DNA of 64,000 nt from Negaprion brevirostris (GCA_030324005.1 JARDVH010000137.1:31931888-31995887), one strand, 5' to 3'; shown: positions 11,346 to 50,804, numbered from the stretch's first letter. The notes: generated from the sequence alone by a model not told the origin. Numbers and translations are program-made.

Positions 11346-11359
11346 GATTTTTTTTGAAA

Positions 11360-12430
11360 ATGTTGTGAAGATGACATAAGGAATCTACAAAGTGATATAG
11401 ATAGGATATGTGATTGGATGCTGACCTGTCAAATGGAGTATGATATGGGAAAAGGTGAAATTGCTCACACGGAATGAAGAATTAAAAAAAAAGTATCAGC
11501 TAAATGGTGAAAGATTGCAAAGCTCTGAGGTGTAGAGGGATCTGGGTGCCCGAGTGCATGAATGCACTGTGTCAGTATGCAGGTACAGCAAGTACTTAAG
11601 AAAGCTAATAGAATGTTATGATTTATTGCTTGGGGGATTAAATACCAAAATAGGGAGGATATACTTCATTTATCTAGGGCATTGATGAGACCACACCTGG
11701 AGTACTGTGTACGAGTGCAGTACTGGTCACCCTATTTCAGGAAGGATGTAAATGTGTTGGAAGCTTGACCAATACCTGAAATGAGAGGATTTTATTATAA
11801 GGAAAGACTGGGCAGGCTAGGCTTATATCAGCTGGAGTTTAGAAGAGTAAGAAATGTCTTTTTCGAACCTTAGGCCGCACTTGGAATACAGCGTTCAGTT
11901 CTAGTTGCCACACTACCAGAAGGATGTGGAAGCTTTGGAGAGGGTACAGAAAAGATTTACTAGGATGTTGTCTGATATGGACGGTATTAGCTATGAGGAG
12001 AAGTTGGAGAAAATTGGTTTGTTCTCACTGGAACGACGGAGATTGAGGGGCAACCTGATAGAAGTCTACAAGATTACAAGAGGCATGGACAGAATGGATA
12101 GTCAGAAGCTTTTTCTCAGGGTGGAAGGGTTAATTACTAGGGGGCACAGGTTAAAGTGTGAGGGGCAAGGTTTAAAGGAGATGTACAAGGCAGATTTTTT
12201 ACACAGAGAGTAGTGGGTGCCTGGAACTCGTTACCGGGGGGAGGTAGTGAAAGCGGATACGGTAGTGACTCTTTAAGGGGTATCTTGACAAATACGCGAA
12301 TAGAATGGAACAGAGGGATATGGTCCCCGGAAGGGTAGAGGTTTTAGTTCAGTCGGGCAGCATGGTTCGAGTGGGCTTGGAGAGTTGAATGGCCTGTCCC
12401 TGTGCTGTAATTTTCTTTGTTCTTTGTTCT
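11360..12430 (+). mobile_element. CR1 LINE 3' fragments (two tandem pieces)
   Basis: ORF PHYQKDVEALERVQKRFTRML...LFSLERRRLRGNLIEVYKI and a terminal ttctttgttctttgttct tail. Confidence 0.88.
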
Positions 12431-12939
12431 TTATTCTTGATCAGATGGGAAGTCGAGGGTCACTGGGTGATTGGGGCGATTGAGTCGTGTGGTTACCCAA
12501 GAGTTAAACTTAGGATTTTTCTGCCTAACATTTCTTAGGCAACTATCCAGATAAGTAAATTTGAACTGCCCGAAGTCTCCTGTTCTAACAAAGACTTGGA
12601 GACTTTTTGAAAAGCCTGAAGAAGCAGGGCAATTAACCATCAGAAGTTCAAACTTCTTGAGCAGTTCCCAGCAAATCAGTGCATTGGGACTTTCAGGGGT
12701 CCTGACATGTATCTTAGGGGATTGTCTGGTCTCTGACAATAAGAGACTGGAAGATCTGGCCATAACGTCTACTACTACACTATTCCTCATGATTTCTCCT
12801 GTCTTTGCCTCTAAGGTTTATTTTCTCTAATCTTACTTGTAAAAGCTTCTTACTGTATTACTCTCTGTTTACTTTCTTTTATTCAATCAATCTCTTGGTT
12901 AATCTTCTCTGAATTCTTAAATCTTGCTGACCCTCAGGC

Positions 12940-13250
12940 TTGCTCTTCTTTCTTCCTGTCCTACTTTCCCTCTCCCTCCATCCTCTTGTGTCACTTTCCC
13001 TCTCTTGAATCTCTTTCTCTCCCCCTCCATCCCTCTTTCCCTCCCCATGAATCTTCTCTTCTCCCTTTATCTTGTGCTCTCTCTCTCTCCCCTCATTTTT
13101 CTTTCCTCCCATCTATCTCTCCCCCTCCCTCCTCTTTCTCCCTTTTCCCGTCATCTCTTTCTTGCTCCTCCCTCGTCTCTGCCTCTCTCTACCCCCTCAG
13201 CTCTTGGTTCTTGTCTCTACCCCGCTCCCTTCCCTCACCTTTTTATCCTT
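12940..13250. repeat. Polypyrimidine (CT-rich) low-complexity tract
   Basis: Almost only C and T on +; generates spurious L/S/P-rich and E/R/G-rich ORFs. Confidence 0.9.
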
Positions 13251-13420
13251 TTACAATTGCTATATTGGATATTGTTATTGGGACTGAGGTCTATTGATAT
13301 GAAAGAGCAGAGGGAGACTGCTTGATGTGAAACAGTCCAGTGTCTTGCTTTGTTTTTTTAATAGATTCTTGACTGCAGCTGTTGATGGAGCTAACCCCTG
13401 CATTTCCATCCCATTGTTAG

Positions 13421-13754
13421 GTGGGAACTGAATGGGATCCCAAGGAGCGACTGTTCCGTAACTTTGGTGGATTGATCGGGCCCTTTGATGAGCCAATTGC
13501 CATGCAGAAATGGTCCAAAGGCAGTAACATGACTGCCACAGTCGTATGGATTGATCCCACTTACATCATTGCGACATCCTATGACATAACAGTGGATTCA
13601 GAGACAGAATACACACAGTACAAGCCCCCATTAAACCACCCACTGCGGCCTGGCAGCTGGACTGTGCGGGTGCTGCACCTGTGGGTTCTCCTGGCAGAAA
13701 CCAAGTTCCTGGTAGTACCTCTGGCCTTCAGTGGGAAGCAACCATTTAGAAAAG
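13421..13754 (+). CDS. XYLT2: Xylosyltransferase 2, penultimate coding exon
   Basis: Acceptor ccattgttag|GTG and donor AAAG|gtatgt (phase 1). Translates [25 protein letters not shown]...[39 protein letters not shown]. Confidence 0.97.
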
Positions 13755-14190
13755 GTATGTTAAATCCTACACAGTATTGAGGCTGGAATCTGCCTCCTGT
13801 CACATATTTTGCAGCCACACTGCATACAGGCTCACCCTTTTCCATACTGGGCTGCTGTGCTCAGTCAGTCTGGTTTAAAAACATCCTATAGTTCAACAAA
13901 TATTAAAATTGTCGAGGAATTACAGAAAGTGAGTGTTTTCTAATTGGAGCAGAGAAGGTTAAGGGGGCTTTTGACGTGGTCTCGTATGTCAGACTGGTAA
14001 CTAAAGCAAAATTCATTGGACCCAAGGCAAAATTGGCTCAGAGACAGGAAGCTAAAGGTAAAGTTCAATGGACCGTTTTGTGACTGGAAGGTTGTTTCTA
14101 TTGGGGGTCCACAAGGCTCAACTCCCATTCTTTTCTGGTATATAATAAATGATGTAGACTTGAATGTAGAGGGTATAGGATCAGGAGAAT

Positions 14191-14490
14191 GACATGGTGT
14201 CACAGTGGTTAGCACTGCTGCCTCACAACGCCAGAGACCTGGTTCAGTTCCAGACTTGGGTTACTGTCTGTGTGGAGTTTGCACATTCTCCCCGTGTCTG
14301 CATGCATTTCCTCTAGATGCCCCTGTTTCCTCTGTCACTCCAAAGATGTGAGGATTAGGTTGATTGGCCATGCTCAGTTGCCCCTTAGTGTCAGGGAGAT
14401 TAGCAGAGTAAATGCATGGAGTTACGGGGAAAAGGCCTGGGTGGGATTGTTGTTGGTGCAGGCTCGATGGGCTGAATGGTCTCTTCTGCA
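14191..14490 (+). mobile_element. HE1/V-SINE-type SINE, near full length
   Basis: cacagtggttagcactgctgcctcaca...gtgtggagtttgcacattctccccgtgtctgc...ccaaagatgtgaggattaggttgattggccatgct. Confidence 0.88.
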
Positions 14491-15269
14491 GGAATGCTAT
14501 TCTGTGAGGAGGCCATTTGGCCCTTCGAATCGATTATCCAACTCAATAACCTGATCCCACCTTCCCCTATATGATTAAGAAATATGTAGACAATGTAAAA
14601 GTTGGCCTTGTGATTGATGATGAAGATGAGAGCAGGAGGCTTCAGGAAGGTATTGATGGAGCAACCAAATGAGCAGGACGGCAATAAATGGAGAACCTGG
14701 AGAAATGTGAGGTAAAGCATTTGGGGAAGGCTAACAAGTCAAGGGAATACAATAAATGCACAGCATACTGAGAAGTGTAGAAGAACAGAGGAACCTCGAT
14801 ATGCATGTCCACAGATGCCAGAAGGTGAATGAATAAGTAGATAGGGTACTCAAGAAGGCAACCTGAAGAATAAGAGGTTATGGTGGAACTGTATAAAACA
14901 ATCTGCGTGGTTCTAGTCACACATTATGTTCCCCTCGAACTGAGTTGTCAACCACATTGTTGTAGGTTTGGGATCACATGTCGGCCAGACCATGTGAGGA
15001 CAGCAGATGTCCTTCCCTAAAGTCCATTAGTGAACCAGGTGGGTTTTTCCAACAATTGACAATGGTTTCATGGTCATCATTAAAATGGGGAAATCTGGAA
15101 CTCTGTTTTGTTTCCCAAAAAATAATTCCATCATGCTCTAACACACTACCTTCAAAAACTTCTAGACATTGTTGAAAAGTTGTTTGGTACTCCACTGAGG
15201 TCTGGAGGCTTGTTTGGTTGAACTTAAACCATTTATTGATAATTCATAACTATTGACATCTCCAAAGTC

Positions 15270-15900
15270 CTATCATGCATGATTGCTGTCCCCATGCTGG
15301 CTTTTTTCAGACTTTGACATACAATCTACCAGTGTGAGTCTCCACATTGTACCACGGGCACTGCTGTTCTCTAATACCACATTAATCCTTAGTCTCCCAA
15401 GCGCCCTTACACTACCCCTCCCTCAAGTCCTTACAAAATATGTTTACAATACAATCTTTTTTAATTGCTACCCCCTTCGCCCCTCAAGTCTCTGGCTTTG
15501 TAAATTCAGAATGTCCAGAATCGCAACAGTTCTCCCAGATCGTGTTCTGTCACGTTTGGAGAAATGGTAGTCCCTGCTATTTTTTGTTGACTTTGTTGGT
15601 TTGGTGCTGCATTTGTAGTGCTCAATGTTTCTGGTACTTGATTGCCTCCATTCAGGTCACGTTTTGTACTCCTTCAAGTCGCATTTCTCTTTATTGACAG
15701 TCCATCTACTTGGTTCAGGCACCTTGGGTTTGACTGTTCTTTTTCAAAGGTAACTTGTTTCACAGTTTTAGCCAAATATTTGTTTGCATTCTCATTTTCC
15801 TAATCCTTTTTCGAGCCTATTTTTTGTTCATTTACTCAGCAGTTACTCTGGTGAGTTCAGTTGCCTTTGTCTAACAGTTATCTGCTTTTAAAGTCAGGAT
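15270..15900 (-). mobile_element. Probable Gypsy-like 3' internal remnant
   Basis: Minus strand encodes RTRSGRTV, typical of integrase C-terminal tails, followed by a purine tract gaggggcgaagggg. Confidence 0.4.
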
Positions 15901-16337
15901 TTGCTCTTCCGCACATTTTGCTCTCCCAGGTGTACCTTTCATGTTTTTCACATAGGATTGAAGTTCAAGTATTACATTACTCCTTTCATGATGCTTACCA
16001 GATACTTCTGAGATTTGAAATGCGTACATTTCTAATTTNNNNNNNNNNNNNNNNNNNNNNNNNNNNNNNNNNNNNNNNNNNNNNNNNNNNNNNNNNNNNN
16101 NNNNNNNNNNNNNNNNNNNNNNNNNNNNNNNNNNNNNNNNNNNNNNNNNNNNNNNNNNNNNNNNNNNNNNNNNNNNNNNNNNNNNNNNNNNNNNNNNNNN
16201 NNNNNNNNNNNNNNNNNNNNNNNNNNNNNNNNNNNNNNNNNNNNNNNNNNNNNNNNNNNNNNNNNNNNNNNNNNNNNNNNNNNNNNNNNNNNNNNNNNNN
16301 NNNNNNNNNNNNNNNNNNNNNNNNNNNNNNNNNNNNT

Positions 16338-16596
16338 ACTCCCACATCCCCATATATTTACCTGCTAATCCCTCTAACCTATGCATCTCAGGACACTAAG
16401 GGGCAATTTTAGCATGGCCAGTTGACCTAACGCGCACATCTTTGGACTGTGGGAGGAAACTGGAGCATCCGGAGGTAACCCACACAGACGTGACAAGAAT
16501 GTGCAAACCCCACACAGTTAGTGACCCAAGTCGGGAATTGAACCTAGGTCCCTGGAGCTGTGAAGCAGCAGTGCTAACTATTGTGTTACCGTGCCA
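16338..16596 (-). mobile_element. HE1/V-SINE-type SINE
   Basis: gacactaaggggcaattttagcatggcc...ctttggactgtgggaggaaactggagcatccggagg...gcagcagtgctaac. Confidence 0.88.
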
Positions 16597-17426
16597 GCCT
16601 TCATTGGATTTAAATTTTCAGTCTTATTTCTGTATTTCTTTTCTCTGTCTTTATTTTAATTTCAGTGTCAGCCAGATCTGTCTTCAGTAAAGTCTTAACT
16701 TTGTTATTTCTCTCAGCTTGGGAAGTTCAATGGCTTTTCTTTTCAATGCCTCCTTATTTCCATTCAGCTGGTTCTTCAGCTCTGTTTCTTGTATCTTTTA
16801 CATTCCTCCTAGAATATGGAACGTTGCTGAGTCTTCTCTGCCACTGGTTCTTTAGTTCATTAAGACTGACATTAAATTCATTTTGCTTCTCTTTGAAATT
16901 TTTGAGAGGAACAAACTTGACCTGAGGGATCCTTGTAGTGTGTAAATGTAATTCAGCAGAGTCTCCTTGACTTTAATCTGCTGTTCTTCTATTCTTTTAT
17001 TCAAGAACCTTCATTACTTCACTTGAAGGGTTATGTGCNNNNNNNNNNNNNNNNNNNNNNNNNNNNNNNNNNNNNNNNNNNNNNNNNNNNNNNNNNNNNN
17101 NNNNNNNNNNNNNNNNNNNNNNNNNNNNNNNNNNNNNNTATGTGCTCCTTTTGGATTTGATCTTGAAAGATGATGATCAACTGTGCTTCCAGTTGTTTAT
17201 TTTCTTGTTAATCTCTTGTCAACCCATGCTGCACTTCAGTGCATCGATTTATCACTACTGAGGGTTCTAGTGCAGCTTTTACTGAAGTAGTATTCAACAT
17301 TGTTTAAGACTCCCCTCAAATGTTATCCCTTTGACCAAGTTTTTGTTTTTTTCCCATAATATTACTTTATGTGGGCTGATGTGGAATTTTGCTTTATAAC
17401 GCTGCTGTGAAGCACATTGGGACATT

Positions 17427-17790
17427 CATAGAATCCCTGCAGTGCAGAAAGAGGCCATTCGGCCCCTCAAGTCTGCACTGATTCTCAGAATATGCATCCC
17501 ACCCAAGCCCTCTCCTCCACTCTATCCCCTTAACTCTGTACATTTACCTTGATTTATCCACCTAATCTGTACATTTTTGGANNNNNNNNNNCACTAAGGG
17601 GCAATTTAGCATGGCCAGTCAACCTAACCTGCACGTCTTTGGACTGTGGGAGGAAACCGAATCACCCGGAGGCAACCCATGCCGACAACACGCAAACTCT
17701 ACACAAACACTCGCCCAAGGCTGGAATCAGACCCAGTTCCCTGGTGCTGTGAGGCAACAGTGCTAACCGCAGTGCCAGCTTGCCACCATT
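17427..17790 (-). mobile_element. HE1/V-SINE-type SINE
   Basis: Same core and head as 16338-16596, plus the catagaatccctgcagtgcaga tail. Confidence 0.85.
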
Positions 17791-18499
17791 TATACAAAAG
17801 GTGCTATGTAAATGTAAGTTGTTGTCAGTGGTGTTACCGTGGTATCTGGGTCAGCTACCAGCAGACATATATTTAAGGTAGTTGATAAAAGAACCAGGGA
17901 GAGATGAGAGTATTTTTATGTAGTGAAATGTTGTGACCTGGAACACGCTGCCAGACAGACTGCTGGATGTAAATTTGTTAATAATTGTCATGAAGGAATT
18001 TGGATACATGCTTGAAGTGGAGACCTTTGCCGTGCTATGAAGCAAAGGCAAGGGGAGTGGGGCTTATTAGCTGAAGAGTCACATTGGGCCATATGGTCTC
18101 ATTCAGGCTGTATGATTTACTTGAGAGTAACAGTAGCTCTGTGCTATAAAGAGTGTATGGTCGGTCTCTCAATCCCAATGTTTCTCTGTTGGTGGTGGCT
18201 CTGAGTTGATCTCCATGCTGCACAGTACATTGAACGTGCTGGATTGCTGGGTTCCAGTTGACTGACGGAACCCTCCACTATAATTCTGGAAGGCTCTGCA
18301 TTACAATCCCAGATCATGAGTGCCCCAGGTTAGCCTGTTTTGTCAAGAGGGTTGTGAGGATTAGAAACCTGAACTCAAATGGGAAATCGACAAAGCAGTT
18401 CCATTTGCCGTGAGTGATTGGTGCAAGCTGCTTGAACCAGGTCATAGACAAGAGGTAAGATAATCTTTGGAATTGCATTCCATTTCCATCTTATCAAAG

Positions 18500-18775
18500 A
18501 GTGATTTTGCATTTATATGGTGCCTTTTGCAACCTCAGGTCACCCCAAAAGGCTTTATAACCACAAAAAAAGTTTGAATTGTAGTCACTGTAGCATTGCA
18601 GAAAATGTGGCAGCCAGAAGATTTTGCAATTGTAACCTATTAAATAGCTGCTTGGATGAATAAATATTGACCAGGACATTGGGGATATCCACCCTGCTGC
18701 TTGTAAAATAGTGCTCTGGGATCTTTTGCAGCCACCTGAGGGGCAGACAAGGCCACACTTAGAAACTGTCCTATC
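18500..18775 (-). mobile_element. Deu-domain SINE remnant (SacSINE1/AmnSINE-like)
   Basis: Minus strand reads ctcaggtggctgcaaaagatcccagagcactatttt...gtcctggtcaatatttatt, resembling the Deu domain. Confidence 0.65.
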
Positions 18776-18878
18776 GAGAGAAGGGTGGAGGAAGATCGCC
18801 ACTGCTCACTTATGTTTTACAGCTGCCATTCTCAATCATTCAGTAAAAATAAACTTTTTTCTCCTTTCTGTGATCCAG

Positions 18879-19201
18879 GACAAGACCAGTGGTTACATGC
18901 TGGCCCACCAAACAATGAGTATATGGACCAGAGCTTCCAGCACCTAAGTGGGATTTTGAACATTCCTCCACCAGATGTTGCTGTGAGGGAGGCGCTAAGT
19001 AATGCTCAGCTATTCGGAAAATCCCTGGAATCGTGGGTGTACGAGAGCGTGGGCAAGTTCTGGTCAGCTACCAATACCTGTGCAGTTGAATCTTCACCAT
19101 GCCCATTACTGCCGCCCTGTCAAAAGACTGCCTGGAGTTCTCTATCAGACGACCCCAAATCTGAACTGGGATCAGTCAAAGGTGACGGTCGTCTGAGGTA
19201 G
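18879..19201 (+). CDS. XYLT2: Xylosyltransferase 2, last coding exon
   Basis: Acceptor ctcctttctgtgatccag|GA fits the phase-1 donor. [24 protein letters not shown]...[22 protein letters not shown] is the canonical XYLT C-terminus. Confidence 0.97.
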
Positions 19202-29167: not shown

Positions 29168-29529
29168 CTACTTGATCCTTGACCATATGGTCGCCAAGAA
29201 TGGTGGGCATTTAAGGGTGCTGTTCAGCGAGTCACATGATGTGGAAATAGTGTCCTGGCAGGTGACCTGCACACAGAATGTATTGGTTGTGGTTTTGAAA
29301 GTGTTTGTCATGTCAAATTTGATGCCACACTCCTCACTCATTATTGAGCTGGTGAGCTCTGGGGTCTTGTGTACACCTTGAACTGACGTAGCCGTGGCTG
29401 AACTCAGTTCATAACTGGTGGACGAGTTGACTTTTTCCTTGTTGGTGTCTAAGAACACAAAGGCTTTGTCCAGCCGCTCTCCATTCCTGCAGCGCAAGTA
29501 AGAAGGCCAACAGTATTCGTTCTCTCTGG
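29168..29529 (-). CDS. Uncharacterised secreted Cys-rich (CUB-like) protein, last coding exon
   Basis: Minus-strand acceptor ccatcttccttatcttattccaacag|CC. Open for 362 nt to TAG: (A)RENEYCWPSYLRCRNGERLDKAF...EECGIKFDMTNTFKTTTNTFCVQVTC...CPPFLATIWSRIK*. Phase matches the donor at 36441. Non-repetitive sequence. Confidence 0.8.
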
Positions 29530-29579
29530 CTGTTGGAATAAGATAAGGAAGATGGTTAGAATGATTTCATTTGAACTTT

Positions 29580-29850
29580 AATTGGAGGTGTTGTCTTTCT
29601 GATAAGACATTAAACCAAGGGACAGTCCATCGCCTCAAGTGGCTGTAAAAGATGCTGTGATGTTATTCACAGAAGTGAAGGGGACTTCTTACTGATGCCC
29701 AGGCCAATATTCATCCCTCAACTAATGTCACTTAAAGGAGATTATCTATTCCAGTTCATATTGCTGTTTTTGGGAGCTTGCTGCATGCAAGTTAATGTTG
29801 GTCTTTCCTACATAATGGTAGTGACTACATTTCCAAAAGTAATTTGGGAG
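29580..29850 (+). mobile_element. Deu-domain SINE remnant
   Basis: ggaggtgttgtctttctgataagacattaaaccaagg...caagtggctgtaaaagatg...ggccaatattcatccctca. Confidence 0.65.
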
Positions 29851-31522
29851 AGTATTAAAATCTACAAGTGTAGATTTTGGACTGCCATCTTTCAACCCCT
29901 ACCTGGTACTTGTCACTTGTTCCACAGGTGTTCATGAACAACATAGTATGCAATCAGGAATAAAAACATCAACATTGATTTTGTTGTATTTACAGTGGTT
30001 ATATGTTGTAATCCCTACAATCATGATGCCCCTTGAAGAGTATACAAGGTATATTTTCATGGAGTGAAGAGCTGGATTATTGTCGGTGTTACTAATTGAC
30101 CTGGATCTCTGGGAACTGGGTTTTGGAATTCTTTATCGTACCTGGAATCTGTTTGACTGCAATCTGGTCTTCCCTGGCACTATGGAGTGGGTAAGTATGA
30201 AGGTTCATTGACTGGATTTTCCCCTTTCTGGCAGTGTATCTGTAGGGCTTCTGCCCATTACTTGGTATGGATGGTGGGTGCTGGGAACTTTCTCACCATC
30301 AGGAGGGAGAACATCATTACCAACATGGACAATCCAGTGAGAACAGCACTGCAACATCAGAAGGCACAAAGAGGTCTNNNNNNNNNNNNNNNNNNNNNNN
30401 NNNNNNNNNNNNNNNNNNNNNNNNNNNNNNNNNNNNNNNNNNNNNNNNNNNNNNNNNNNNNNNNNNNNNNNNNNNNNNNNNNNNNNNNNNNNNNNNNNNN
30501 NNNNNNNNNNNNNNNNNNNNNNNNNNNNNNNNNNNNNNNNNNNNNNNNNNNNNNNNNNNNNNNNNNNNNNNNNNNNNNNNNNNNNNNNNNNNNNNNNNNN
30601 NNNNNNNNNNNNNCGGTTTGTGTGTGTGTGTGCCTGTATTGAACAGGATGGGTGGTATCTCGACTATGTATGTTATAGATCTCACTCAAGACTTTTGACA
30701 TTCTTTCTCATCTAAATTTATCATTGTAACTTTTATTCCTTGTCCAACTTTCTCTTAAATACATCTATAGTATGCTTCAACCATTCCCTATAGTTGTGAG
30801 TTCCACATTCTTATAAATCTGACAGTAAAGAACTTTCCTGCGTCCCCTGTTGGGTGTCTTGTTAAGTATCTTATATTAATGTTACTTTTAGATTTTACCT
30901 GTAAACCCCCAAATGTCTGACTCTCTGTCTTTCTCTCTGCCGATTATTTGTTTCTCGCTCTCTCCGAAGTCTTGCTTCATGGGCTTCCCCTGTAGCAAAG
31001 CATGAGTCAGCTACTGAAGGTCAGAAAAGATAGAAAATAAAAGGAGCGCTTCTTTTCCTCTTCTCTGAACTCCCTCTCACCAAACTCCACATTTGCAATC
31101 TAATGCAGCCCAAAAGAGCATCCCAGTGCAGACTTCTTGAAGTTTAATGCTATGCTCTTCGCAGTTAACAAATCTTGCAAGTGTTGTGTCATATGCAAAT
31201 TTTGAAATTGTGCCCTGTACATCCAAGTCGAGGTCATTAGTATGTGTCATGAAAAGCAGACCCCTGACTCCAATTCCTAGGTAATCCCACTATAAACCTT
31301 TCCTTAGTCCAAAATGTCACCTTCACTGTTGCGTTTACAGTCACTCAGACAATTTTGTATTATTTTGTCTTTAATTTCATGAGCTCTAACTTTACTGACA
31401 AACCTGCTGCATGGCATTTTATTAAATGTCTTTTGGTAGTCTATGTACATTATTTCAACCACATCACCCTGTTAAATATTCTGTTACCTCATCAAAAAAC
31501 TTAAGCAGGTTAGTTAAACATG

Positions 31523-31710
31523 GGTGACTGTGGACTCTGCACATTCTCCCTGTGTCTGCATAGGTTTCCTCCCACAGTCCAAAGATGTGCAGGTTAGGTT
31601 GCTTGACATGCTAAATTAACCCTAGTGTCAGCGGGATTAGCAGGGTAAATAAGGGAATCAGACCTGGGTGAGATTGTGGTCGGGGCAACTTGATGGGCCT
31701 CCTTCTGTAC
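31523..31710 (+). mobile_element. HE1/V-SINE-type SINE, 5'-truncated
   Basis: gcacattctccctgtgtctgc...tcctcccacagtccaaagatgtgcaggttagg. Confidence 0.8.
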
Positions 31711-31965
31711 TGTCTGCGAGCGATGGGGGAAAGAGAGAAAGAAAGAGTGCCTGTGAGCGATGGGGGAAGGAGGGTGCCTGCGAGCGATGGGGGAAGGAGG
31801 GTGTCTGCGAGCGATGGTGGGGAAAGAGAGAAAGAGTGTCTGCGAGCAATGGTGGGGAAAGAGAGAAAGAGTGTCTGCGAGCAATGATGGGGAAAGAGAG
31901 AAAGAGTGTCTGCGAGCGATGGTGGGGAAAGAGAGAAAGAGTGTCTGCGAGCGATGGGGGAAAGA
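31710..31965. repeat. Minisatellite, ~28-35 bp unit gtgtctgcgagcgatggtggggaaagagagaaaga, about 8 copies
   Basis: Directly visible tandem units. Confidence 0.92.
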
Positions 31966-32599
31966 GGAGGTGGGGAGGAAGAGTGTAAATCTTCACTGGT
32001 AGTTGCAATTGCTTGGTATGATCCTAACTGTTTGCCACATCTCCATTTTGGTAGAATCAGCAACTACTGACAACTTAATTTGCATTCCAATATCCAAGTC
32101 ATCTGTGAAATAAATTATCAATAAAAAGCATCGGTGACTCTTGGAAAACCCCACCCAGTCTGAAAGATAATCCATGACCCTGACTCACTGAGCAGGGTTT
32201 TCCAGCCATGCTTGCTGCAAGGCTGGAAATTCCCGCTCAAGTCAACAGACTTTTGCGTGATCCGACCCCACCTGCTACAGTCCCGTGGCAGGCGGGACAG
32301 GAAAACGCCACCCACCATTTTCTGCTCTCTTAACTTTTTTAATTCAAGCTCCAATCTCATGAGCTGCATGCGATGATCAGCCTTTGTGGGTATTTTGTCA
32401 CATGTTTCCTTATAGTCCATATCCACTGCATTATCGTCAATACCCTCTGTTATTTTATCAAATAATTAGATTAGTCAAGCACAATGCTTGTTAAAAAATC
32501 CATGCTGGTTTATCTCAGTCACTTTGAACTTCTCAAAGTGCCTGTTAACATTTTCCCCTGACTATTGTATCAAAAACCTTATTCAAAACTGACTGGCCT

Positions 32600-32900
32600 G
32601 TAGTCACTGGAAACTAACCACCACCCGCGGACATGCACAAAAGTCATAGTCGATAGGGTAGTCCTCCTGTATGGTTGTGGAACCTATGTAACCTATCGTC
32701 GATATATGAGAAAACTCGCCTTGTACCATCAGAATAGATGAATTGCCATACAAACAATGGGTCTTCAAGGAAGCAAGCGTCCAGAGTACTGTGATGACCA
32801 GCTCACCCAACAACTGTAGTGGACAGGCTATTGCATCAGAACATTGAATCCATACCTTCTGAGAGCACCCAGTTCTCTATTGCTTGAAACTGGTCAAGAT
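32600..32900 (+). mobile_element. RTE-like LINE remnant
   Basis: Translates VLLYGCGTYVTYRRYMRKLALYHQ, resembling the RTE LLYGCETW..YRRH...L..FHQ motif. Confidence 0.5.
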
Positions 32901-33049
32901 CAGAGGAAAGCAAAAAAAGATTGGATTTGACCTCAACAGCTGGGAAGAGAGCTCAGTGGACCACCTATGGTGGCAAATCCGGCCTTCACCAAGGTGGGTG
33001 TGGTTTTGCATCAGAGCGGATATCACAAACTAAACATGGAAACGTTCAA

Positions 33050-34760
33050 AGTAGGATTAAGCCTGAACCACCATTCAACATCATAGCTGATTTGCTATCC
33101 CAAAGCCATACTCTTGCTTTCTCCCCATACTCCTTGAAGCCTTTAGTGTCTAGAAATCTATTTCTTAAATATATTCAGTGACTTGGCATCCACTGCCTTC
33201 TGCGGTAGAGAATTCCATTGGTTCGCCACCCCCTAGTGAAGAAGTTTTTCCTCATCTCAGTCCTAAATGGCTGACTTGTATCATGAGTCTGTGACCCCTT
33301 ATTTTGGATCCCCAGCCAGGGGAAACATCATTCCTACATTCAGTCAGTCCAGCCCTATCAGAATTTTATGTTTTAGTGAGATCCCCAGTCATTCTTCTAA
33401 ACTCCAGTGAATATAGTCCTAGTCAACCAATCACTCCTCATAACAACTCTGCCATCCTTGTAATCAGTCTGGTGAATCTTCACTCTCTATGGGAAGTACT
33501 CCTTTCTTAGGTAAGTAGACCAAAACTGCACACAATACTCAAGGTGCAGTGTCACCTAAGCCCAGTATAACTGCAGAAAGACTTCCTTGCTCCGGCACTC
33601 AAATCCACTTGCAATGAAGACCAACATACCATTTGCCTGCCTAACAGCTAGATGTACCTAGTTGCTTTCAGTGGTGTACAAGAACAGCCAGGTCCCTTTA
33701 TGTATCAATATTTCCCAATCACCATTTAAATAATACTCTGCCATTCAGCTTTTCCTACTGAAGTGGATAACTTTGCACTTACCCATGTTGTAAGGCATTT
33801 GCCACATACTTGTTCACCCACTCAGCTTTTCTAAATCATCTTGAAACTTCTTTACATTGTCCTCCCCGCTTGCATCCCATCAAATGTGTCATCGGAAATA
33901 ATACTTGTGATTTCCTCATCCAAAGCATTGCTGTACATTGTGAATAGCTAGGACCCAAACACTGATCCCTGCGATACCCCACTAATCATCACCTACCACT
34001 CTGAAAAGTACTCATTTATTCCTACTCTGTTTCCTATTTGTCAATCCATGCCAATAAATTATCTTTCATTTCACGTGCTTTAGCTTTAATTCTGCATACT
34101 AATCTCTTACGTGGGATTTTATCAAAATTATATGAAATTCCAAATACACCATGTCCACTAGTTCCCCCTTATCTATTATATTAATTAAATCCTCAAAAAA
34201 AAACAGGAGGTTTGTCAAACATAATTTCCCTAGGTTGACTTTGTCGAATCCCTTTGTTATTTTCTAAGTGTCCTGTTGTCACATCCTTTATTATTTTCAG
34301 ACTACCGATGTTAGGGTAACTGGCCAGTAATTCCGTGCCTTCGTCCTCCCTCCTTTTTTAAAAAGTGGGGTTACATTTATCAATCTGCTGGAACTGTTCC
34401 AGAATCTACAAAATTTTGGAAGATAATAACTAATGCATCCACTATTTCTAGAACCACTTCTTTTAGTGTCCTAGGATGTAGATCATCAGGACCTGCGGAT
34501 TTATTGGATATCAATCCTATTAATTTCACCAACACTTTTTTTTTGGCAATACTAATTTCTTTCAAGTTCTCCTTCTCACTGAACCATTGAAAACTTAGCA
34601 TTTCTGGAAGTTATTTGTGTTTTCCTCCATGAAGATGTAACTAAAGTAGTTTAATTGCTCTGCCATTTCTTTGTTCTCCATAATCAGTTCCCTTTCCTGA
34701 GCACTAAGGGATCTACATTTGTCTTCATTAATCTGTTTTTTTCTTAGAAGCTTTTACAGT
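33050..34760 (-). mobile_element. CR1 LINE, long decayed ORF2 fragment
   Basis: ORF KSAGPDDLHPRTLKEVVLEIVDALVIIFQNFVDSGTVPAD; 3' tail at 33050-33300. Confidence 0.85.
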
Positions 34761-35870
34761 CCACTTTTATGTTCCTGAAGACACAGGAGCAGAAAGCTCA
34801 AGAAGATGCATAACCTCTCATTGACTACAAAGCGACTAATGACTGTCTGCCAATGCAGATTTTAGATATTTTACCTTGCTTCCCCTTCACTAACTCCTTT
34901 ATCTTGCACTGTCTTCACCCCTACCTCTTACCACTTCCTTCACTCCACCTTTCTTTATTCCTCTCACGCCCCCTCTCCATTCTATGTCTTCACAGCAAGC
35001 ATCCTCCTTGCTCCAAGGTGTACCTGGATGCAATTACTGGGATGCCTTTTTTGAATAATAATATCACATTTGCCAAATTTCACTCCTCAGGCACCTGCCC
35101 CATACCTAGTGAAGATTCCAAAATTATGGAAACCCTGCTGTGACCCCCCACTGTCTTCATTTAGCAACCCAGTATAAGCCATCCAGACAGATGACTTATC
35201 CATTTTAAGCATAGCCAGAACATCCTATCTATTCATTCTCTCCTCTTCCATTACCTCTACTATCTCCACTTGTAACAATATTTTCTCAGCCTCTTCTTAG
35301 TAAACATTGATACAAAGGACTTACTAAGTATTTCAGCATTATCTTGTACCCCTAAAGATGACATTGCCTCAAACACACCCCACATCAAGCTCTACCTATT
35401 TATTATTTANNNNNNNNNNNNNNNNNNNNNNNNNNNNNNNNNNNNNNNNNNNNNNNNNNNNNNNNNNNNNNNNNNNNNNNNNNNNNNNNNNNNNNNTGGG
35501 CAGGATTTTAGTGCAGGCTTTAGGACTTTTTCTTCAGGATGAAATGCAGGTATTGAAAATGTGCTCGCCAAGGGGAAGGCTGTCTCGCTGATTTTAGTAG
35601 AGGTGGCTTCCTCATTGATTGTCTCTGGGCTTCCTGTCAAATTGCATGGGCAGAGTGCAGATCCTGTGGGTCAGTCAGAGCATCTCTGAAACCTCAAGAG
35701 GCAAGCGCTGAAGAGGCAGGCCAGTGAATAACGGAGCACCTCAAACATGGAGACACCTTTGGAAAGGTAAGCAAACATTTAAAACCACATGCCATCCTGA
35801 TGGCCCACTGTGAAAATCCTACCTCTGGGCTAGTGGCCCCATAGAGATTCACTGCAAAGCTATCACGTCT

Positions 35871-35978
35871 GTCCAATTCCCTGTTTCAATCCCCATAGTC
35901 CAATTCCCTGTCTCATTCCCCAATGTCCAATTCCCTGTCTCCATCCCCATAGACCAATTCCCTGTCTCCATCCGCATA
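35871..35978. repeat. 27-bp tandem repeat x4 (gtccaattccctgtctccatccccata)
   Basis: Four adjacent near-identical units. Confidence 0.9.
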
Positions 35979-36081
35979 GGCCTGCAGCTTTATGATCAGA
36001 TGCATACCCAAATTCTTCTTGAGATTATTCATCATCTCTGCTTTCACCACCCTTGTAGGCAGCGAGTTCAGAGCTTTGTAG

Positions 36082-36416
36082 CTGTGTTTGTCTGTGTGTG
36101 GGGCTGGGGGTGTGTGTGTGTGTTTGTGGGTGGGTGGCTGTGTGTCTGTGTGCGTGAATGTGACTGGCTGTGTGTGTGTCTTTGTGTCTTGGGATGTGTT
36201 AGTGTTTGTGTTTCTCTGGGGTTGTGTACGTGTTCATGTATGTGTCTGTTAGTGTATGTTTGGCTATGTGCATTCTTGTCTGTCACCCACAGGGGTGTGA
36301 TTTTGTATATGTGTATCTGTGTGTGTGTCTGTGTTTGTGTGCGTGTTTAATTGTGTCTGTGTGTGCATGTGTGTCGTATGTGCTGTGTGTGTCTTTGTAT
36401 GTGCTGTGTGTGTGTG
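36082..36416. repeat. Degenerate (GT)n/(CA)n microsatellite
   Basis: About 330 bp of interrupted GT dinucleotides. Confidence 0.92.
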
Positions 36417-36440
36417 GGGCTGTGCCCTTCCCCTGTTTAC

Positions 36441-36693
36441 CTGTCACTGAGTTATGCAAACGAACGGTCATTCTCTTCTGTTGTCGGAGGATCTTCATGT
36501 AAGTCAGCACAGTGCAGTTCAACATGCACTCGTTTGATGGAGGAAGCCGTTTAGGACCCTCCGATAATCTGCGTACTTCATTCTGGATAAGGCAGGGAGG
36601 CGATTCCAACGGTGCTACGCTGATGTCATGTGTACTGAAGCAAGTGGAAAGAAACCAGATACTGACTAACCCCCAAAGATAGGCCTGAGCCAT
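36441..36693 (-). CDS. Uncharacterised secreted Cys-rich (CUB-like) protein, first coding part of exon 2 (exon 36842-36441)
   Basis: Start in strong Kozak context (agaATGG). Signal-peptide-like MAQAYLWGLVSIWFLSTCFS. Donor ACAG|gtaaac after 84 codons +1 nt. Upstream acceptor cacctttgccag|G at 36842. Confidence 0.8.
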
Positions 36694-37267
36694 TCTTATG
36701 AAGTCTTGTAAACGTCACTGCGATTACACATCTGTCAAAGCTGCTATGAATTTGCGGCCTTGGAGGTGGAAAAACGTTTGAGCGATTTTTACAGCCCTCA
36801 TAGGGCTGACGCGGACAAAGTTGGCAGTATGTTTGGAATCTCCTGGCAAAGGTGATTCTGAGTAAACAGCAATATATCACCCTAGCTCATGGCCCATTTC
36901 ACAGATGTGAAAGCCATTTGACCTGATAGTGGAGCTTAACCCTTTCAGTAGCATAATCTCAATGCTAGAATTTAAACAAAATAACCTCGAACTTTCTCTG
37001 CCATTTAAGACAATTGTAGATAATCTATCCTTCGGCTCCATTTATCTGTCTTTTCACCAAAGTTCACCCCTAGAAATCTCTCAATTTAATTCCTTAAATA
37101 CTCAACTGACCTCCAGTGTCCTCAACCCTTGTAGGGATGGGAGGCTAGCTGCAGATTTCCACTATCCTTTGTGTGATTAAACCGCTTCTTGATTTCGCCG
37201 CTGCAACCAGTAACCCGCTGGTCTGCTGTTGAGAGCGGGTTAGTGCCATGCCTGGCAGTGCACTTAC

Positions 37268-37448
37268 CCCCAGGACACAAGGAGCTTTAACTTCATCTTT
37301 CCATTCTGTAACCTCGCTGTGTGTTCAACGGGGTGGAAGGTACAGCTGGAAACGACAGACTGGCTGCTTGTCTGCTCGCTCTCTCTCTCTCTCTCTCTCC
37401 CTTTGACTGATCAGCCCTGCCCAAAAATCCCCTGCCACAGAAAGCGCT
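37268..37448 (-). other. Predicted 5' leader exon of the minus-strand CUB-like gene (TSS approximate)
   Basis: Strong donor GGG|gtaagtg at 37268/37267. Begins about 25-30 nt downstream of a TATA box and contains a (GA)n tract. Confidence 0.6.
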
Positions 37449-37473
37449 GGGACACTCCTGCTGAATGCATCGA

Positions 37474-37479
37474 TTTATA
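37474..37479 (-). promoter_or_regulatory. TATA box
   Basis: gggaTATAAAtcg on the - strand, upstream of the leader exon, in unique sequence that visibly retains CpGs. Confidence 0.55.
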
Positions 37480-44281: not shown

Positions 44282-47200
44282 GGGCAGAATTGTACGATCT
44301 CGTCACGCCCGCTTTGCAATGGGAAAATGTCGGAAAATCGGGTATGATGCCACTCGTGGGAATGGTGCCCGTTTTCAGCCCATTATAAAGACCATAAGAC
44401 GTAGGAGCACAATTAGGCCACTTAGTCCATTGAGTCTACTCCGCCATTCAATCATGGCTGATGTTTTTCTCATCCCCATTCTCCTGCCTTTTCCCCATTA
44501 CACCTGACCCCCTTATTAATCAAGAACTTATCTATCTCTGTCCTAAAGGCACTCACTGACCTGGCCTTCATAGCTCTCCACAGCAAAGAGTTCCACAGAT
44601 TCACTGCTCTCTGGCTGAAGAATTTTAAAGGATTGTCCCTTCAGCCTGAGGTTGTGCCCTCTGATTCTAGTTTTTCCTACTAGTGGAAACATTCTCTCCA
44701 CGTCCACTCTATCAGGCCTCGCAGGGTCTTGTAAGTTTCAATAAGATCCCCCCTCATCTTTCTAAATTCCAATGAGTACAGACGCGGAGTCCTTAACAGT
44801 TCCTCATACGACAATCTCTCCAATCCAGGGATCCTTCTTGTGAATCTCCTCTGGACCCCTTACAAGGCCAGCACATCCTTCCTTAGATATGGGGCCCAAA
44901 ATTGCTCACAATACTCTAAATGGGATCTGACCAGAGCCTTACACAGCCTCAGAAGTATACTCCTGCCCTCTTGACATGAATGCTAACATTGCATTTGCCT
45001 TCTTAACTGCCGACTGAACATGCACGTTAACCTTGAGAGAATCTTGAACAAGGACTCCCAAGTTCCTTTGTTTTTCTGATTTCCTAAGCATTTTCCCATT
45101 TAGAAAAAAGTCTATGCCTCCATTCCTCCTTTCAAAGTGTATAACCTCAGTTTTCCACATTGTATTCCATCTGCCATTTCTTTGCCCACTTTCTTAACCT
45201 GTCCAAGTCCCTCTGCAGCCCCCCTGCTTCCTCAATACTACGTGTTCCTCTACATATCTTTGTATCATCTGCAAACTTAGCATCAGTGCCTTCAGTTTAT
45301 TCCTCCAAATCGTTAATGTATATTGTGGTGCTAGCACCAACACCTGAGGCACAACACTAGTCACTGGCTGCCATCCTGAAAAAGAACCCTTTATCCCTAC
45401 TCTTTGCCTTCTGCCAGTCAGCCAATTTTCTATCAATGCCAGGATTTTACTCTTAACACCATGGGCTCTTAACTTATTTAATAGTCTCCTATGTGGCACC
45501 TTGTCAAAGGCCTTTTGGAAATCTAAATAAATCACGTCCACTGGTTCTCCTTTATCTAACTTCTTTGTTACCTCCTGAAAGAACTCTAACAGATTTGTCA
45601 GACATGACCTCCCCTTGATGAAGTCGTGCTGACTCAGTCATATTTTATCATGCACTTCCAAATACTCTGCGATCTCATCTTTAATTAGAGAGAATATCAC
45701 AGCAATACTGAGAGTGGATATACCCGAGGGTTCGCTCACTGAGTCTGTATGAGTAGAACTGAGAAATAAGCAGGGGGAAATCACTTTGATAGGTTTATAC
45801 CATACGCCCCCAAATAGTCAGCAGGAAATTGAGGAGCAAATATGTAAGGAGATTACTGATAGCTCCAAGAAAAATAGGGTGGTAATAGTAGAGGATCTTA
45901 NNNNNNNNNNNNNNNNNNNNNNNNNNNNNNNNNNNNNNNNNNNNNNNNNNNNNNNNNNNNNNNNNNNNNNNNNNNNNNNNNNNNNNNNNNNNNNNNNNNN
46001 GTCCTTCAAGCAACTGTCAAACCTCTCGTGCTGCTGATGGCTCTGGCTCCAAAAGGAGACAGTGCAACAACTGTGCGACTTGTTGTAGGACCTGGCACCT
46101 CAGGGCACAGGGGGGTACCTACTTGTAAAGGTGATGGCAGCCTTAAGCTTTTACGCCACTGGGTCCTTCCAGACCACCACTGGAGACCTTTATGGCATTT
46201 CCCAAGCATCCGTCCACAAGTGTGTGAAGGAGGTTATGCATGTCCTGTATGCCCGGGCTGGCCAATATGTTAAATTTAACTTGGACTAGGCCCAGCAGGA
46301 AGCCCAGGCTGAAGGATTTTCAGCCATTGTGGAGATGGTAAATGTGCAGGGAACTATAGGCGCTCGTGAAGAGTCCAGGATGATTCATGAACAGCGAGGG
46401 CTTCCATTCAATAAATGTGCAGTTGCTGTGTGGCCTTCATCTAAGTATCATACACTTCCATGCTCCAGCCTGACTACGCTGTCACTAATGGTCCATATCC
46501 CTTCCTCTCCCGCAAGCTCCAGCGCCCTCTTCTCAAAGGGGGTGAGGATCTGAATCTCAATCTCAGGCACACTACCCCCTGTCTTCACCCTCTCCTGGCG
46601 ATTGTGGGCATTCTTCTCCTGTGGGGGTAGAAGGAGTCATGTAAAATTTGGCACAAATCCTGCAGGGTATCAGGGGATGGCCCTCAGAGGGCAAGGATTG
46701 TGACAGTCTTGGGTAGGAGAAGGGAGGTCCTTGGGGGTCAGGGGCTGAAAGCATACTGGGGGTGGATGCGGGGGGTCNNNNNNNNNNGGAAGATGCTGGA
46801 TGAGGTTAAACACTGACCCTTGCTACCTGGATGAGGTCATTCAGTTTTTTGCGGCACTGTTTCCTGGTTCTCCTGACCAGTGCCCTGGCACTAACACATG
46901 CTGCCACCTCTTCCCAGGCTGTGTTTCCATCCCTTTCTCTGGGACAGCATCCTGCTATGAGGAAGAGGGTGTCCTGACTTGTCGCCACTGCCTCCAGCAA
47001 CTTGGCAAGATCAGCATCAGAAAATTAGGGCGGCGGGGAAGCTGTCTTCCTCAAAGCCGTTTCTTCCTGAACTGCCTGCCTATTTGTCCATCCTTGGAGT
47101 TTTTATGGAGCTGTCCTTTGTTAGGGCAGATCAGCTGCAGCCAGTTTGGATGAGTCACCACATTTGTGGTTTAAAGCAGTTTGCCTTGTTACCACGGAAG

Positions 47201-47949: not shown

Positions 47950-49004
47950 GGCTTGGTTCTTTTCCTCAAATGATCCACGTGTTTTTCACGTAACAATCTT
48001 ACACTTCCAATGCCTATAAAATTGGTCCTGTTCTCTCTCTACAATTCTTCCCGACACCAGGCCAGTGCACCATCGATCTCGAACGCTGTTTTCTCCTTTC
48101 TTCAAGTTGTGGTGTTCTTTCTGGGAGGCTTGCCGAGCCTTCACCCTCCCCAACAAATCCGAAAATATCAAATACAATTGAGTTCGTGGGTGGTGCCCAA
48201 TTAATAACTCGACTGGCATAACTCCTGTGGTAGCGTTTGGCATGGTATTATATGATAACAAGAAACTTGCTAATGTAAGGTCAGTGGCCTCTGAGCTTGC
48301 TTCTTCATTGAAGCTTAAAATGTTTGTACAGCTTGCTCTGCCAAGACATTCAAGGCTGGGTGGTAAGGGGCTGACNNNNNNNNNNATACTGACTTTGACT
48401 TGGCAAGTTGGTGGAACTCCTCAGCTGTAAATGCTGTGCTATTGTTGGACACTAAGACCTCAGGGATGCCATGGATGGTAAACATCTATCACAATCTGTG
48501 GATGGTGGCTATGGCCATTGTAGAAATGGATCAGATTTTTCCAGGCATTCACTGCCAGCTAGGATGGCGAATTTGGCGCTCAGCCAAATCTCCATTCACT
48601 GCAACTGTAGGATCCTGTTCCTCAATAGCAGGACGTGTAACCATTTTCAATGTGCATCAACTGGAATGAGGAACGTATGTCCCATGGACGCTCCAGTGAA
48701 GTCTATGTGCAGTCACGACCATAACCAGCCCGGCCACTCCCATGGATGCATCTTTATTGGTGGTGGCATCGACTGCTGGGTTTGGCGACTTGCTGACCAT
48801 TCTTTCGATCTCCTTGACAATGCCAGCCCACCAAGCATAGCTTCAGGCCATAGCCTTCATCCTATTTTGTTCAGGGTTTGCATCATGCAAGCTCCTGTAG
48901 TAAAAGCCATTGCCACTGGGGTGGCACTAAAATACATGCCCATAGGGTCCAGCTTGACCACATGGCCTTAAAGGATTGCCCCTTAAAGGGTCCACATTAC
49001 CACA
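47950..49004 (-). mobile_element. Gypsy integrase remnant with LTR end
   Basis: LSYNTMPNATTGVMPVELLIG, LHIDFTG and VWRKHVDHL-like motifs; LTR start TGTGGTAATGTGG at 49004 on -. Confidence 0.75.
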
Positions 49005-49269
49005 ACCCCTTTTGGGGATCAGGCCAGTGAGCTAGCTGGGGAGGAGCAAGCTCATTATCCTGTGTCAGGATAGAATTGTCCCAGGAATGAGAATATCTCC
49101 AGTCTGTAGTTGTCAAGTGGACCCATTGAGTGAGAAATTTATTTAATTGAGGCACTTGCTTAGTCAATTGATCACTCAAATTCTAGCAAGGTACCAGCAA
49201 GAAAAGAAGGCCAGTCAGGGAGGCCACAGCTCCGTATCCAACCCCACTTCTGAAGAGGATTTCTCAGAA

Positions 49270-50804
49270 GTCCCAGAAGACAAGTCTCCTGGCCCTGATG
49301 GAATGCATTTCAGGGTACTAAAAGAGTCGGTGGGGAAATAGCAAATGCTCTAGTGGTAATTTGCCAAAATTCGCTGGACTCTGAGGTTGTTCCTTCAGAT
49401 TGGAAAACAGCAAATGTGACGCCACTGTTTAAAAAAAGGTAGACAAAAGGCTGGTAACCATAGGTCAGTTAGCTTAACTTCTGTAGTAGGGAAAATGCTT
49501 GAATCTATCATCAAGGAAGAAATAATAGTGAGACACCTGGATATAAGTTGTCCCATTGGCAAGACGCAGCATGGGTTCATGAAGGGCAAGTCGTGGTTGA
49601 CTAATTTGATGGAATTCTTTGAGAACATTACATGTGCAATGGACATTGGAGAACCTGTGGATGTGATGTATCTGGATTTCCAGAAGGCATTTGACAAGGT
49701 GCCACACCAAAGATTGCTGCATAAGATGAAGGTACATAGTGTTATGGGTAATGTGTTAGCATGGATAGAGGATTGGTTAACTTACAGAAAGCAAAGAATT
49801 GGGGTAAATGGATGTTTTTCTGGTTGGCGATCAGTGGCTAGTGGTCTAGTGCCTCAGGATCAGTGTTGGGATTGCAGTTGTTTATGATTTACATCAATGA
49901 TTTGCAGTTGGGGACCAAGTGTAGTATGTCAAAATTTGCAGATGACATTAAGATGAGTGGCAGAGCAAAGTGTGCAGAGGATGCTGAAAATCTGCAAAGG
50001 GATATAGATAATCTAAGTGGGTGTTTGAGGGCCTGGCAGATGGAGTACAATGTTGGTAAATGTGAGGTCATCCATTCTGGTAGGAATAACAGCAAAATGG
50101 ATTATTATTTAAATGGTAAAAAATTGCAGCATGCTGCTGTGCAAAGGGACCTGGGTGTCCTTGTGCAAAAATCACAAGGAGTTGGTTTGCAGGTGCAGCA
50201 GTTAATTAAGAAGGCAAATGGATTTTTGTCTTTCATTGCCTAGAGGGAAGGAGTTTAAAAACAGCGAGGTTATATTACAGCTTTGTGAGGTGCTGATAAG
50301 GCCACATCTGGATACTGTGTATAGTTTTGGTCTCCTTACTTGAGAAAGAATACAGTGGCACTGGAGCGGGTACAGACGAGATTCACTAGGTTGATTCTGG
50401 AGTTGAGAGGATTGGCTTATGAGGAGAGACTGAGTAGACTGGGGCTATACTCGTTGGAGTTCTGAAGAATGAAGGGAGATCTTATAGAAACATATAAGAC
50501 TATGAAGGGAATAGATAAGATAGAAAAAGGGAAATATTTTCCACTCGCGGGTGAAACTACAACTAGGGGTCATAGCCTCAAAATAAGGGGAAGTGGATTT
50601 AGAACTGAGTTAAGGAGGAATCTCTTCACCCAAAGAGTTGTGAATCTGTGGAATTCCCTGCCTAGTGAAGCAATTGAGGCTACCTCATTGAATGCTTTTC
50701 AGGCAAGGATAGATACATTTTTGAAGATAAAGAAATCAAGGGTTATGGTAAGCGGGCGGGTAAGTGGAGCTGTGTCCATGAAAAGATCAGCCATGACTTT
50801 ATTG
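49270..50804 (+). mobile_element. CR1 LINE ORF2 (RT to 3' end), frameshifted
   Basis: KSPGPDG, QHGFMKGKSWLTNLMEFFE, YLDFQKAFDKVPH, SKFADD and FTQRVVNLWNSLP. Confidence 0.93.

Follow-up and report, generated by a model that had tools for sequence, protein, structure and literature searches.

A probable prodomain-only TGF-beta-family gene in the shark Negaprion brevirostris and other jawed vertebrates, with a credible link to Gsdf

The prodomains of BMP9 and BMP10 are cut from a growth-factor precursor, and cleaved prodomains that act on ligands are already known. In the fly, the secreted glycoprotein Anachronism has a domain like a propeptide and lacks a growth factor. The prodomain of pro-BMP9 contacts its growth factor through three elements, alpha2, beta1 and alpha5, of which beta1 probably contributes most of the energy, according to PMC7113306. 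Another TGF-beta-family ligand, gonadal soma-derived factor (Gsdf), acts in several fishes as a master or early signal of sex determination (PMC5979292) and is still termed an orphan ligand with uncharacterised signalling (PMC12989411). TGF-beta inventories appear to be built on the growth-factor domain, and therefore a member of the family that lacks this domain can be missed. A 64,000-nucleotide (nt) stretch of DNA from the shark Negaprion brevirostris, called the window below, holds on its minus strand, from 37479 down to 29168, a gene whose 204-residue product is, judging from its modelled fold, very probably such a prodomain-only member. The shark protein is prodomain-like, yet it is neither a TGF-beta ligand nor Gsdf.

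The gene had been proposed in a sequence-only reading of the same DNA, and a re-check of the minus strand bore out all of its coordinates. The candidate TATA box (TATAAA, 37479-37474), the GT donor after 37268, the AG acceptor before 36842, the phase-1 donor after 36441 and the acceptor before 29529 are present as claimed, and the ATG at 36693 lies in the strong Kozak context described (A at -3, G at +4). The two coding parts of 253 and 362 nt join into the uninterrupted 615-nt coding sequence that had been predicted, encoding 204 residues and a stop. By consensus alone the splice sites are ordinary, and the join of the exons therefore rests on homology. Of 596 GT sites, 30 reach the score of either donor, the acceptor at 29529 is equalled by 10 of 417 acceptors, and that at 36842 by 67 of the 417. 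Each coding exon separately matches the same five elasmobranch clusters, with proteins of 203–204 residues, and the joined protein differs from the Mustelus asterias protein XP_078081590 at 4 of 204 positions. In addition, both exons stand within one open reading frame (ORF) of a Logan contig of 3,003 nt (P0071) that comes from a ray-like animal. The junction of the 6.9-kilobase (kb) phase-1 intron, which is placed just after strand beta1 of the modelled protein, is found again in gene models of bony fishes and snakes. The first intron of INHBA, MSTN and TGFB1 presumably has the same phase and place. Since both coding exons match the same elasmobranch proteins, the claim of a real gene stands, and these comparisons indicate that the shark gene is genuine.

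The protein contains 11 cysteines, one in the leader and ten in the mature part, its three sequons are N59, N119 and N187, and it lacks a hydrophobic stretch of transmembrane length, all of which agrees with the earlier description. The hydrophobic N-terminus is also there, but it is only modest, with a 19-residue hydropathy of 1.28. Across the whole family the leader is hydrophobic but variable; among 11 elasmobranch proteins, only 4 of 32 leader columns are invariant, compared to 35 of 52 in columns 33–84. The newt homologue carries the UniRef name “Secreted protein”. A secreted, cysteine-rich protein without a characterised name had been claimed, and its conservation, its richness in cysteine and its lack of a characterised name hold (9 of the 11 elasmobranch records are named “uncharacterized” or “hypothetical”), while secretion is only probable. 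Eight cysteines are kept in most family members in the alignment. Those at shark positions 175 and 183 are both found in sharks, lungfish and most tetrapods and are both absent from ray-finned fishes, a pattern that suggests a disulfide pair.

A furin site and a C-terminal cystine-knot growth factor are absent from the shark protein, in which scans for RxxR, CxC, CC, CxxC and CxGxC found none of these motifs. Among 73 stored proteins, 68 contain the terminal motif, after which the median tail is 12 residues long, and CxC occurs in none of these 68 tails. Moreover, profile and motif scans found no growth-factor exon downstream in the window. In 6 of the 68 proteins, from sturgeon-like fishes and gar (P0013, P0029, P0036, P0057, P0058 and P0070), an RxxR stands just after the last strand. 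This is the furin-site position of a full precursor, and the motif there is possibly a remnant, or else chance.

The fold of the protein was modelled with AlphaFold2 on the M. asterias sequence, which is 98% identical to that of the shark, using 49 aligned sequences. The model has a predicted local distance difference test (pLDDT) score of 71 and a predicted template modelling (pTM) score of 0.68, with a helix at residues 55–71 followed by a beta-sandwich; residues 17–28 and 38–47 have a pLDDT below 50. An earlier fold on 11 close sequences was uninformative (pLDDT 31). In a Foldseek search, the ten best rows are all TGF-beta-family prodomains, with expectation values (E) of 1.6e-3 to 4.5e-3. 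Realignment of 996 Foldseek chains places prodomains in the first 15 rows, and the best of these is the BMP9 prodomain 6sf2_F, with a Z score of 10.4 and a root-mean-square deviation (rmsd) of 3.2 over 130 aligned residues, covering model residues 55–203. Likewise, the first four rows from 48,161 representative chains are prodomains (Z 9.2–8.1), headed by BMP10 (7poi_C, Z 9.2, rmsd 3.5, 117 aligned). Among the top structural rows, alignments with Z above 8 include the alpha2 helix only where the match is a prodomain. The ESM Atlas returns TGFb_propeptide clusters both for the shark protein (0.90, 153 features) and for the snake protein (0.94, 189 shared features).

The closest structural relatives are the BMP9 and BMP10 prodomains (6sf2, 4ycg, 4yci and 7poi), which have in common with the shark model the alpha2 helix and the arm beta-sandwich (Z 9.6–10.4, rmsd 3.1–3.5, 118–133 aligned), with alpha2 and beta1 as predicted contact elements in both. 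The shark protein is only 12–14% identical to these prodomains, has extra conserved cysteines, and is the product of its own gene without a growth factor. The prodomains of latent TGF-beta1/2, pro-myostatin and pro-activin also have the arm fold (Z 8.1–8.8), but unlike them the shark protein has no clear alpha1 straitjacket, furin site or growth factor. Pro-myostatin aligns from model residue 36; only about 30 low-confidence residues precede alpha2, and this segment looks short for a full alpha1 straitjacket. The first ESM Atlas hit of the shark protein is an anachronism cluster (0.90, 153 shared features), an arthropod cluster of about 350 residues of which 56% carries PF00688. Anachronism may be an independent case, as the likeness is known from Atlas features alone, and a literature search for it as a TGF prodomain found no paper. 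A further Atlas cluster, “Uncharacterized LOC111231597” (328 residues, chordate, 83 members, no common Pfam family), scores 0.89 against the shark and 0.94 against the snake protein, and may be a second orphan prodomain-like family.

Several results weigh against a prodomain identity. No Foldseek row has an E of 0.001 or below, and structural identity to prodomains is just 6–16%. The Pfam family TGFb_propeptide (PF00688) matches none of 49 members at E up to 10, and searches of the PDB by sequence with two profiles gave chance hits and no relative. Pfam likewise assigned no meaningful family to either exon piece, to any of the 11 elasmobranch proteins or to the 49 members, and a likeness to prodomains shows up only in structure and in language-model features. 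A best Z of 7–8 is common background in such searches, and the carbohydrate-binding module 8wab (Z 8.0–8.1, rmsd 3.4, 113–114 aligned) ties with the lower prodomain rows; its alignment begins at model residue 71–73, without alpha2.

The family extends well beyond sharks. A profile of the 11 elasmobranch proteins was run against 1.84 billion representatives at E up to 0.001 and gave 46 hits, of which 44 are credible and most are 140–260 residues long; a repeat (P0052) and a 2,356-residue bacterial-Ig protein (P0053) were discarded as spurious. Of the 46 clusters, 21 were looked up, yielding 15 with names and 6 Logan sequences. The named members come from lungfish, sturgeons, bichirs, gar, Arapaima, Prochilodus, Alosa and Nibea among the fishes, and from a caecilian, a newt, snakes and a marsupial, the sugar glider, among the tetrapods. 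The sequence-only reading was thus right about a real, conserved, cysteine-rich protein and did not see its prodomain identity or its link to gsdf; its suggestion of a gene restricted to cartilaginous fishes fails on the lungfish, ray-finned fish, amphibian and snake members, and that of a loss in mammals as a whole fails on the sugar glider. No bird or placental mammal is among the 15 named hits, and with 21 of 46 clusters looked up this does not establish absence. Polypterus and Erpetoichthys have two near-identical copies each (P0014, P0059, P0060 and P0061) with close gene numbers on contigs of equal length, which suggests tandem duplication; the 64-kb window has no second copy of the family.

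A tree of 56 last-exon rows fits one gene family that follows the species, with the ray-finned fishes as one clade (100/97) and a weak join between shark and lungfish (81/27). Seventeen stored proteins were left out of this tree, 10 as spurious, partial or near-duplicate and 7, including five shark or ray rows, dropped by the cutting rule. These sequence relationships indicate that a single gene family spans the jawed vertebrates. No published description of the family was found in the literature searched, mostly without subscription papers and bioRxiv supplements, and no paper there mentions any of six gene identifiers of the family.

The link to gsdf comes from fused gene models. In 4 of the 46 hits (bichir, sturgeon, Arapaima and Nibea), gsdf-like sequence stands ahead of the family's last exon; the Nibea model is one that we take to be a teleost Gsdf. 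Two fused models match Pfam TGF_beta, with E of 1.2e-8 and 0.0094. The same two carry the glycine-less cysteine motif, which is diagnostic of Gsdf according to PMC6007259, and the remaining two align with this motif-bearing pair in their N-terminal part. The fusions would therefore place the gene downstream of gsdf, on the same strand, in ray-finned fishes. Other fused models hint at additional neighbours: in a bichir model (P0038) a TB domain of LTBP type separates gsdf-like sequence from the last exon, and in a fish model (P0055) the last exon is followed by part of a C-type lectin. Among the 11 elasmobranch records, two, P0009 (XP_060700379) and P0010 (XP_048411205), are named gonadal somatic cell derived factor by NCBI. 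Pfam finds no TGF-beta domain in either, and the name may reflect a common locus.

Gsdf and the shark-family protein differ in complementary ways. In two of the fused models, 74–75 residues separate the first prodomain cysteine from the growth-factor CC, and the coelacanth GSDF coding sequence is 693 nt long (PMC3636272). Because this spacing and this length give no room for it, Gsdf would have no arm: it consists of a straitjacket and a cystine knot, whereas the shark-family protein consists of an arm without a cystine knot. The two would therefore be complementary parts of a precursor, overlapping in an alpha2-like helix that is common to both. The shark protein has no TGF-beta domain and no glycine-less cysteine motif, and the family profile scores parts of Gsdf at 1.7 bits at most.

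The interaction of the two parts was modelled with two copies of an Arapaima Gsdf piece (residues 40–208, with the last cysteines missing) and the full arm protein of another fish. The complex scores 0.74, compared to 0.01 for the best of 3 controls; at least 86% of contacts are common to the runs, and the partner has a pLDDT of 75. Of microbial pairs, 51 of 78 solved ones reach the score mark, as do 2 of 108 mismatched ones; among eukaryotic pairs the counts are 39 of 65 for solved and 2 of 126 for unrelated ones. In the predicted interface, alpha2 and beta1 lie on the Gsdf finger, with further contacts to the N-terminal segment of Gsdf, and this is the binding mode described for pro-BMP9 in PMC7113306. 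The modelled shark protein appears to keep alpha2 and beta1, two of the three contact elements listed there for the BMP9 prodomain. The 12 interface residues of least error have a conservation of 0.60 versus 0.41 elsewhere, a value reached by 106 of 20,000 random sets, and the non-cysteine residues of alpha2 and beta1 (shark T61, T64, Y65 and R78) are 76–83% conserved in 29 non-redundant rows. The controls held no other TGF-beta ligand, and for this reason the prediction does not single out Gsdf; the predicted geometry is plausible, but it does not establish Gsdf as the partner.

Taken together, the model and the predicted complex point to a free prodomain that would act in trans. The product would begin with a signal peptide and a short linker tied by disulfides, followed by helix alpha2 and the arm beta-sandwich, and a growth factor for furin to release is missing. 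Once secreted, it would lay alpha2 and beta1 on the growth-factor finger (the type II receptor face), as the cleaved BMP9 prodomain does, and the bound arm would chaperone, solubilise or dampen its ligand. That it binds the finger of some TGF-beta-family ligand in this way is moderately probable on the modelling. In fishes, the first candidate partner would be Gsdf, which kept straitjacket and growth factor and seemingly lies just upstream in ray-finned fishes; Gsdf as the physiological partner is a tentative proposal, with rather less than an even chance of being right. Snakes and marsupials have no gsdf, and the partner there would therefore be another family member. A split-precursor history is put forward as possible, about as tentatively. 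In it, a full precursor gene would have been duplicated in tandem long ago, gsdf would have lost the arm and the other copy the growth factor, the products of these two complementary remnants would reassemble inside or outside the cell as a two-gene pro-complex that sets the secretion, latency or receptor access of Gsdf, and amniotes would have kept the arm for another ligand.

The tie to Gsdf faces its own difficulties. Adjacency in fishes rests on fused predictions and not on DNA sequence, and fusions to other neighbours (TB domain, C-type lectin) occur too. PMC12989411 places sea bass gsdf1 in the company of ppef2, nup54 and aff1, with no annotated gene of the prodomain-only kind in that neighbourhood, while the only neighbour identified in the shark window is a xylosyltransferase gene. 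Searches of the 64-kb window for a gsdf exon or any cystine-knot exon, by tblastn, a local profile and motif scans, gave nothing significant, the local profile being built from four partial ray-finned-fish sequences and run on 2,729 ORFs (best E 0.28); a divergent exon could escape, and the window has 15 gaps. The family gene is kept in snakes and a marsupial, although gsdf is lost from amniotes and frogs (PMC7096497, PMC8292791). The predicted complex is a weak test: it combined a truncated Gsdf piece, taken from a chimeric Arapaima gene model, with the arm of another fish in place of the shark protein, and its score may reflect memory of solved pro-BMP9 and pro-TGF-beta. Conservation over the whole 29-residue predicted interface is not above chance (5,564 of 20,000 sets); the 12-residue subset was picked afterwards, and folding may explain its conservation.

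Two segments of the window were inspected as possible gsdf exons and rejected. The first, 30027-29944 (E 0.21), is without the expected motifs and splice sites; no gsdf exon was found in the 6.9-kb intron. The second, at about 24541-24490 on the minus strand, 4.6 kb past the stop codon, resembles a Gsdf-type growth-factor start in having paired cysteines followed by a four-residue match; its tblastn E is 16, a stop precedes it, and no motif or splice site follows. This likeness is probably chance, and a relic is conceivable.

The main rival to a ligand-binding role is that the protein is a prodomain-derived orphan independent of growth factors, a secreted beta-sandwich whose binding partner is glycosaminoglycan, matrix or a receptor of its own, and for which adjacency to gsdf is mere history. 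This is unlikely, yet it has the most in its favour of the rivals. Such a protein would presumably resemble Drosophila Anachronism, whose cluster is the first Atlas hit, and a chondroitin-sulfate-binding module scores Z 8.0–8.1 against the model. The eight cysteines found across the family suggest that the domain was remodelled and stands by itself, the predicted interface as a whole is not unusually conserved, no gsdf was found in the shark window, and the gene is retained where gsdf is lost. What speaks for binding to a ligand is that the alpha2 and beta1 contact elements described for the BMP9 prodomain are retained, that their four residues T61, T64, Y65 and R78 are conserved to the degree given above, and that the Gsdf-arm prediction passes.

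It is improbable that the arm exons instead belong to the gsdf transcription unit, with alternative splicing or read-through yielding Gsdf, a hybrid of straitjacket and arm, or the arm protein, in which case the NCBI “gsdf” label would be right for the locus. The four fused models do join in frame at the same junction, and two elasmobranch records bear the gsdf name. However, the four fusions leave gsdf at differing points, as prediction errors would, and the shark gene has its own candidate TATA box, leader and probable signal peptide in a window where no gsdf exon was found. A fish record near Nibea in the tree (P0039) carries 20 extra residues at the junction that look like a short retained intron, which would leave no room for a gsdf nested inside the gene, and in amniotes the gene stands alone. 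A common jelly-roll fold in a protein unrelated to the TGF-beta family is the least probable explanation, hardly to be expected even though there is no sequence-level match, all Foldseek E-values exceed 0.001, and carbohydrate-binding modules and TssK also align at Z 7–8, because only prodomains among the top rows align alpha2 at Z above 8, two distant members are placed in the same family by language-model features, and the recurrent fish neighbour is a TGF-beta-family gene.

The features of the gene and its surroundings are collected in the table below.

Features of the prodomain-like gene and its neighbour in the Negaprion brevirostris window
Feature	Coordinates	Strand	Basis or remark
Candidate TATA box	37474..37479	-	Sequence match
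Candidate 5' non-coding exon 1	37268..37445	-	Start placed about 30 nt below the TATA box; GT donor after 37268
5' untranslated part of exon 2	36694..36842	-	Acceptor uncertain; second AG before 36858
First coding part of exon 2	36441..36693	-	Codes for residues 1-84, with 1 nt over: leader, linker with Cys, alpha2 helix, beta1 strand
Probable signal peptide, about residues 1-26, end approximate	36616..36693	-	Hydropathy, leader variability
Helix alpha2 equivalent, residues 55-71	36481..36531	-	Model; predicted ligand-contact helix; BMP9 prodomain alignment starts at residue 55
Strand beta1 equivalent, residues 76-81	36451..36468	-	Model; predicted to pair with ligand finger
Phase-1 intron, 6.9 kb	29530..36440	-	Repeat-like sequence; two assembly gaps, 30378-30613 and 35410-35496
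Last coding exon	29168..29529	-	Residues 85-204 plus stop: remaining arm beta-sandwich; no growth-factor domain after
Candidate proximal polyadenylation signal ATTAAA	29122..29127	-	Sequence match
Candidate distal polyadenylation signal AATAAA	27023..27028	-	Would give an mRNA of about 3.1 kb
Convergent xylosyltransferase gene, last coding exon (start approximate)	18880..19201	+	Neighbour, separate from the prodomain gene

Upstream of the main ATG, the proposed leader (about 37296-36629 on the minus strand, across exons 1 and 2) has four ATGs that had been overlooked, two of them in candidate exon 1. From one of the four runs a frame of 81 codons, hydrophobic at its beginning, which extends over the main ATG in a different reading frame. 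The ray-like contig instead has a 77-residue extension in frame with the main protein, unlike the shark upstream frame, and its upstream extension has no significant tblastn match in the window that would support exon 1. Translational control by the upstream ATGs is possible; the frame itself is not conserved. At the 3' end, the mRNA length expected from the distal signal resembles that of the 3,003-nt contig from another species.

The remainder of the window contains, from 640 to 19201 on the plus strand, the 3' part of a xylosyltransferase gene, either XYLT2 or XYLT1: Xylo_C is found in three ORFs, and the human XYLT1 chain is matched. Broken retrotransposon-like frames, judged by eye, lie at 32100-35400, 44900-45640, 47990-50250 and elsewhere; two ORFs near 48 kb have no Pfam match, and Rfam gave no match. 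Two of the 15 assembly gaps fall inside the long intron.

The gene is thus real, overlooked and present across the gnathostomes; it very probably encodes a growth-factor-less TGF-beta prodomain and has a credible link to Gsdf. In the searched literature on gsdf synteny, prodomain, propeptide, arm and cartilaginous fish, parts of which were accessible, a prodomain-only gene is not mentioned. The two RefSeq shark proteins that are named gsdf and lack a TGF-beta domain can mislead surveys of orthologues. A separately encoded arm might also be why work with recombinant or knockout Gsdf could miss a cofactor, and the question arises whether deletions made around gsdf might touch a neighbouring arm gene. 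If Gsdf and the arm protein do form a split-precursor pro-complex, this may bear on sex determination in fishes.

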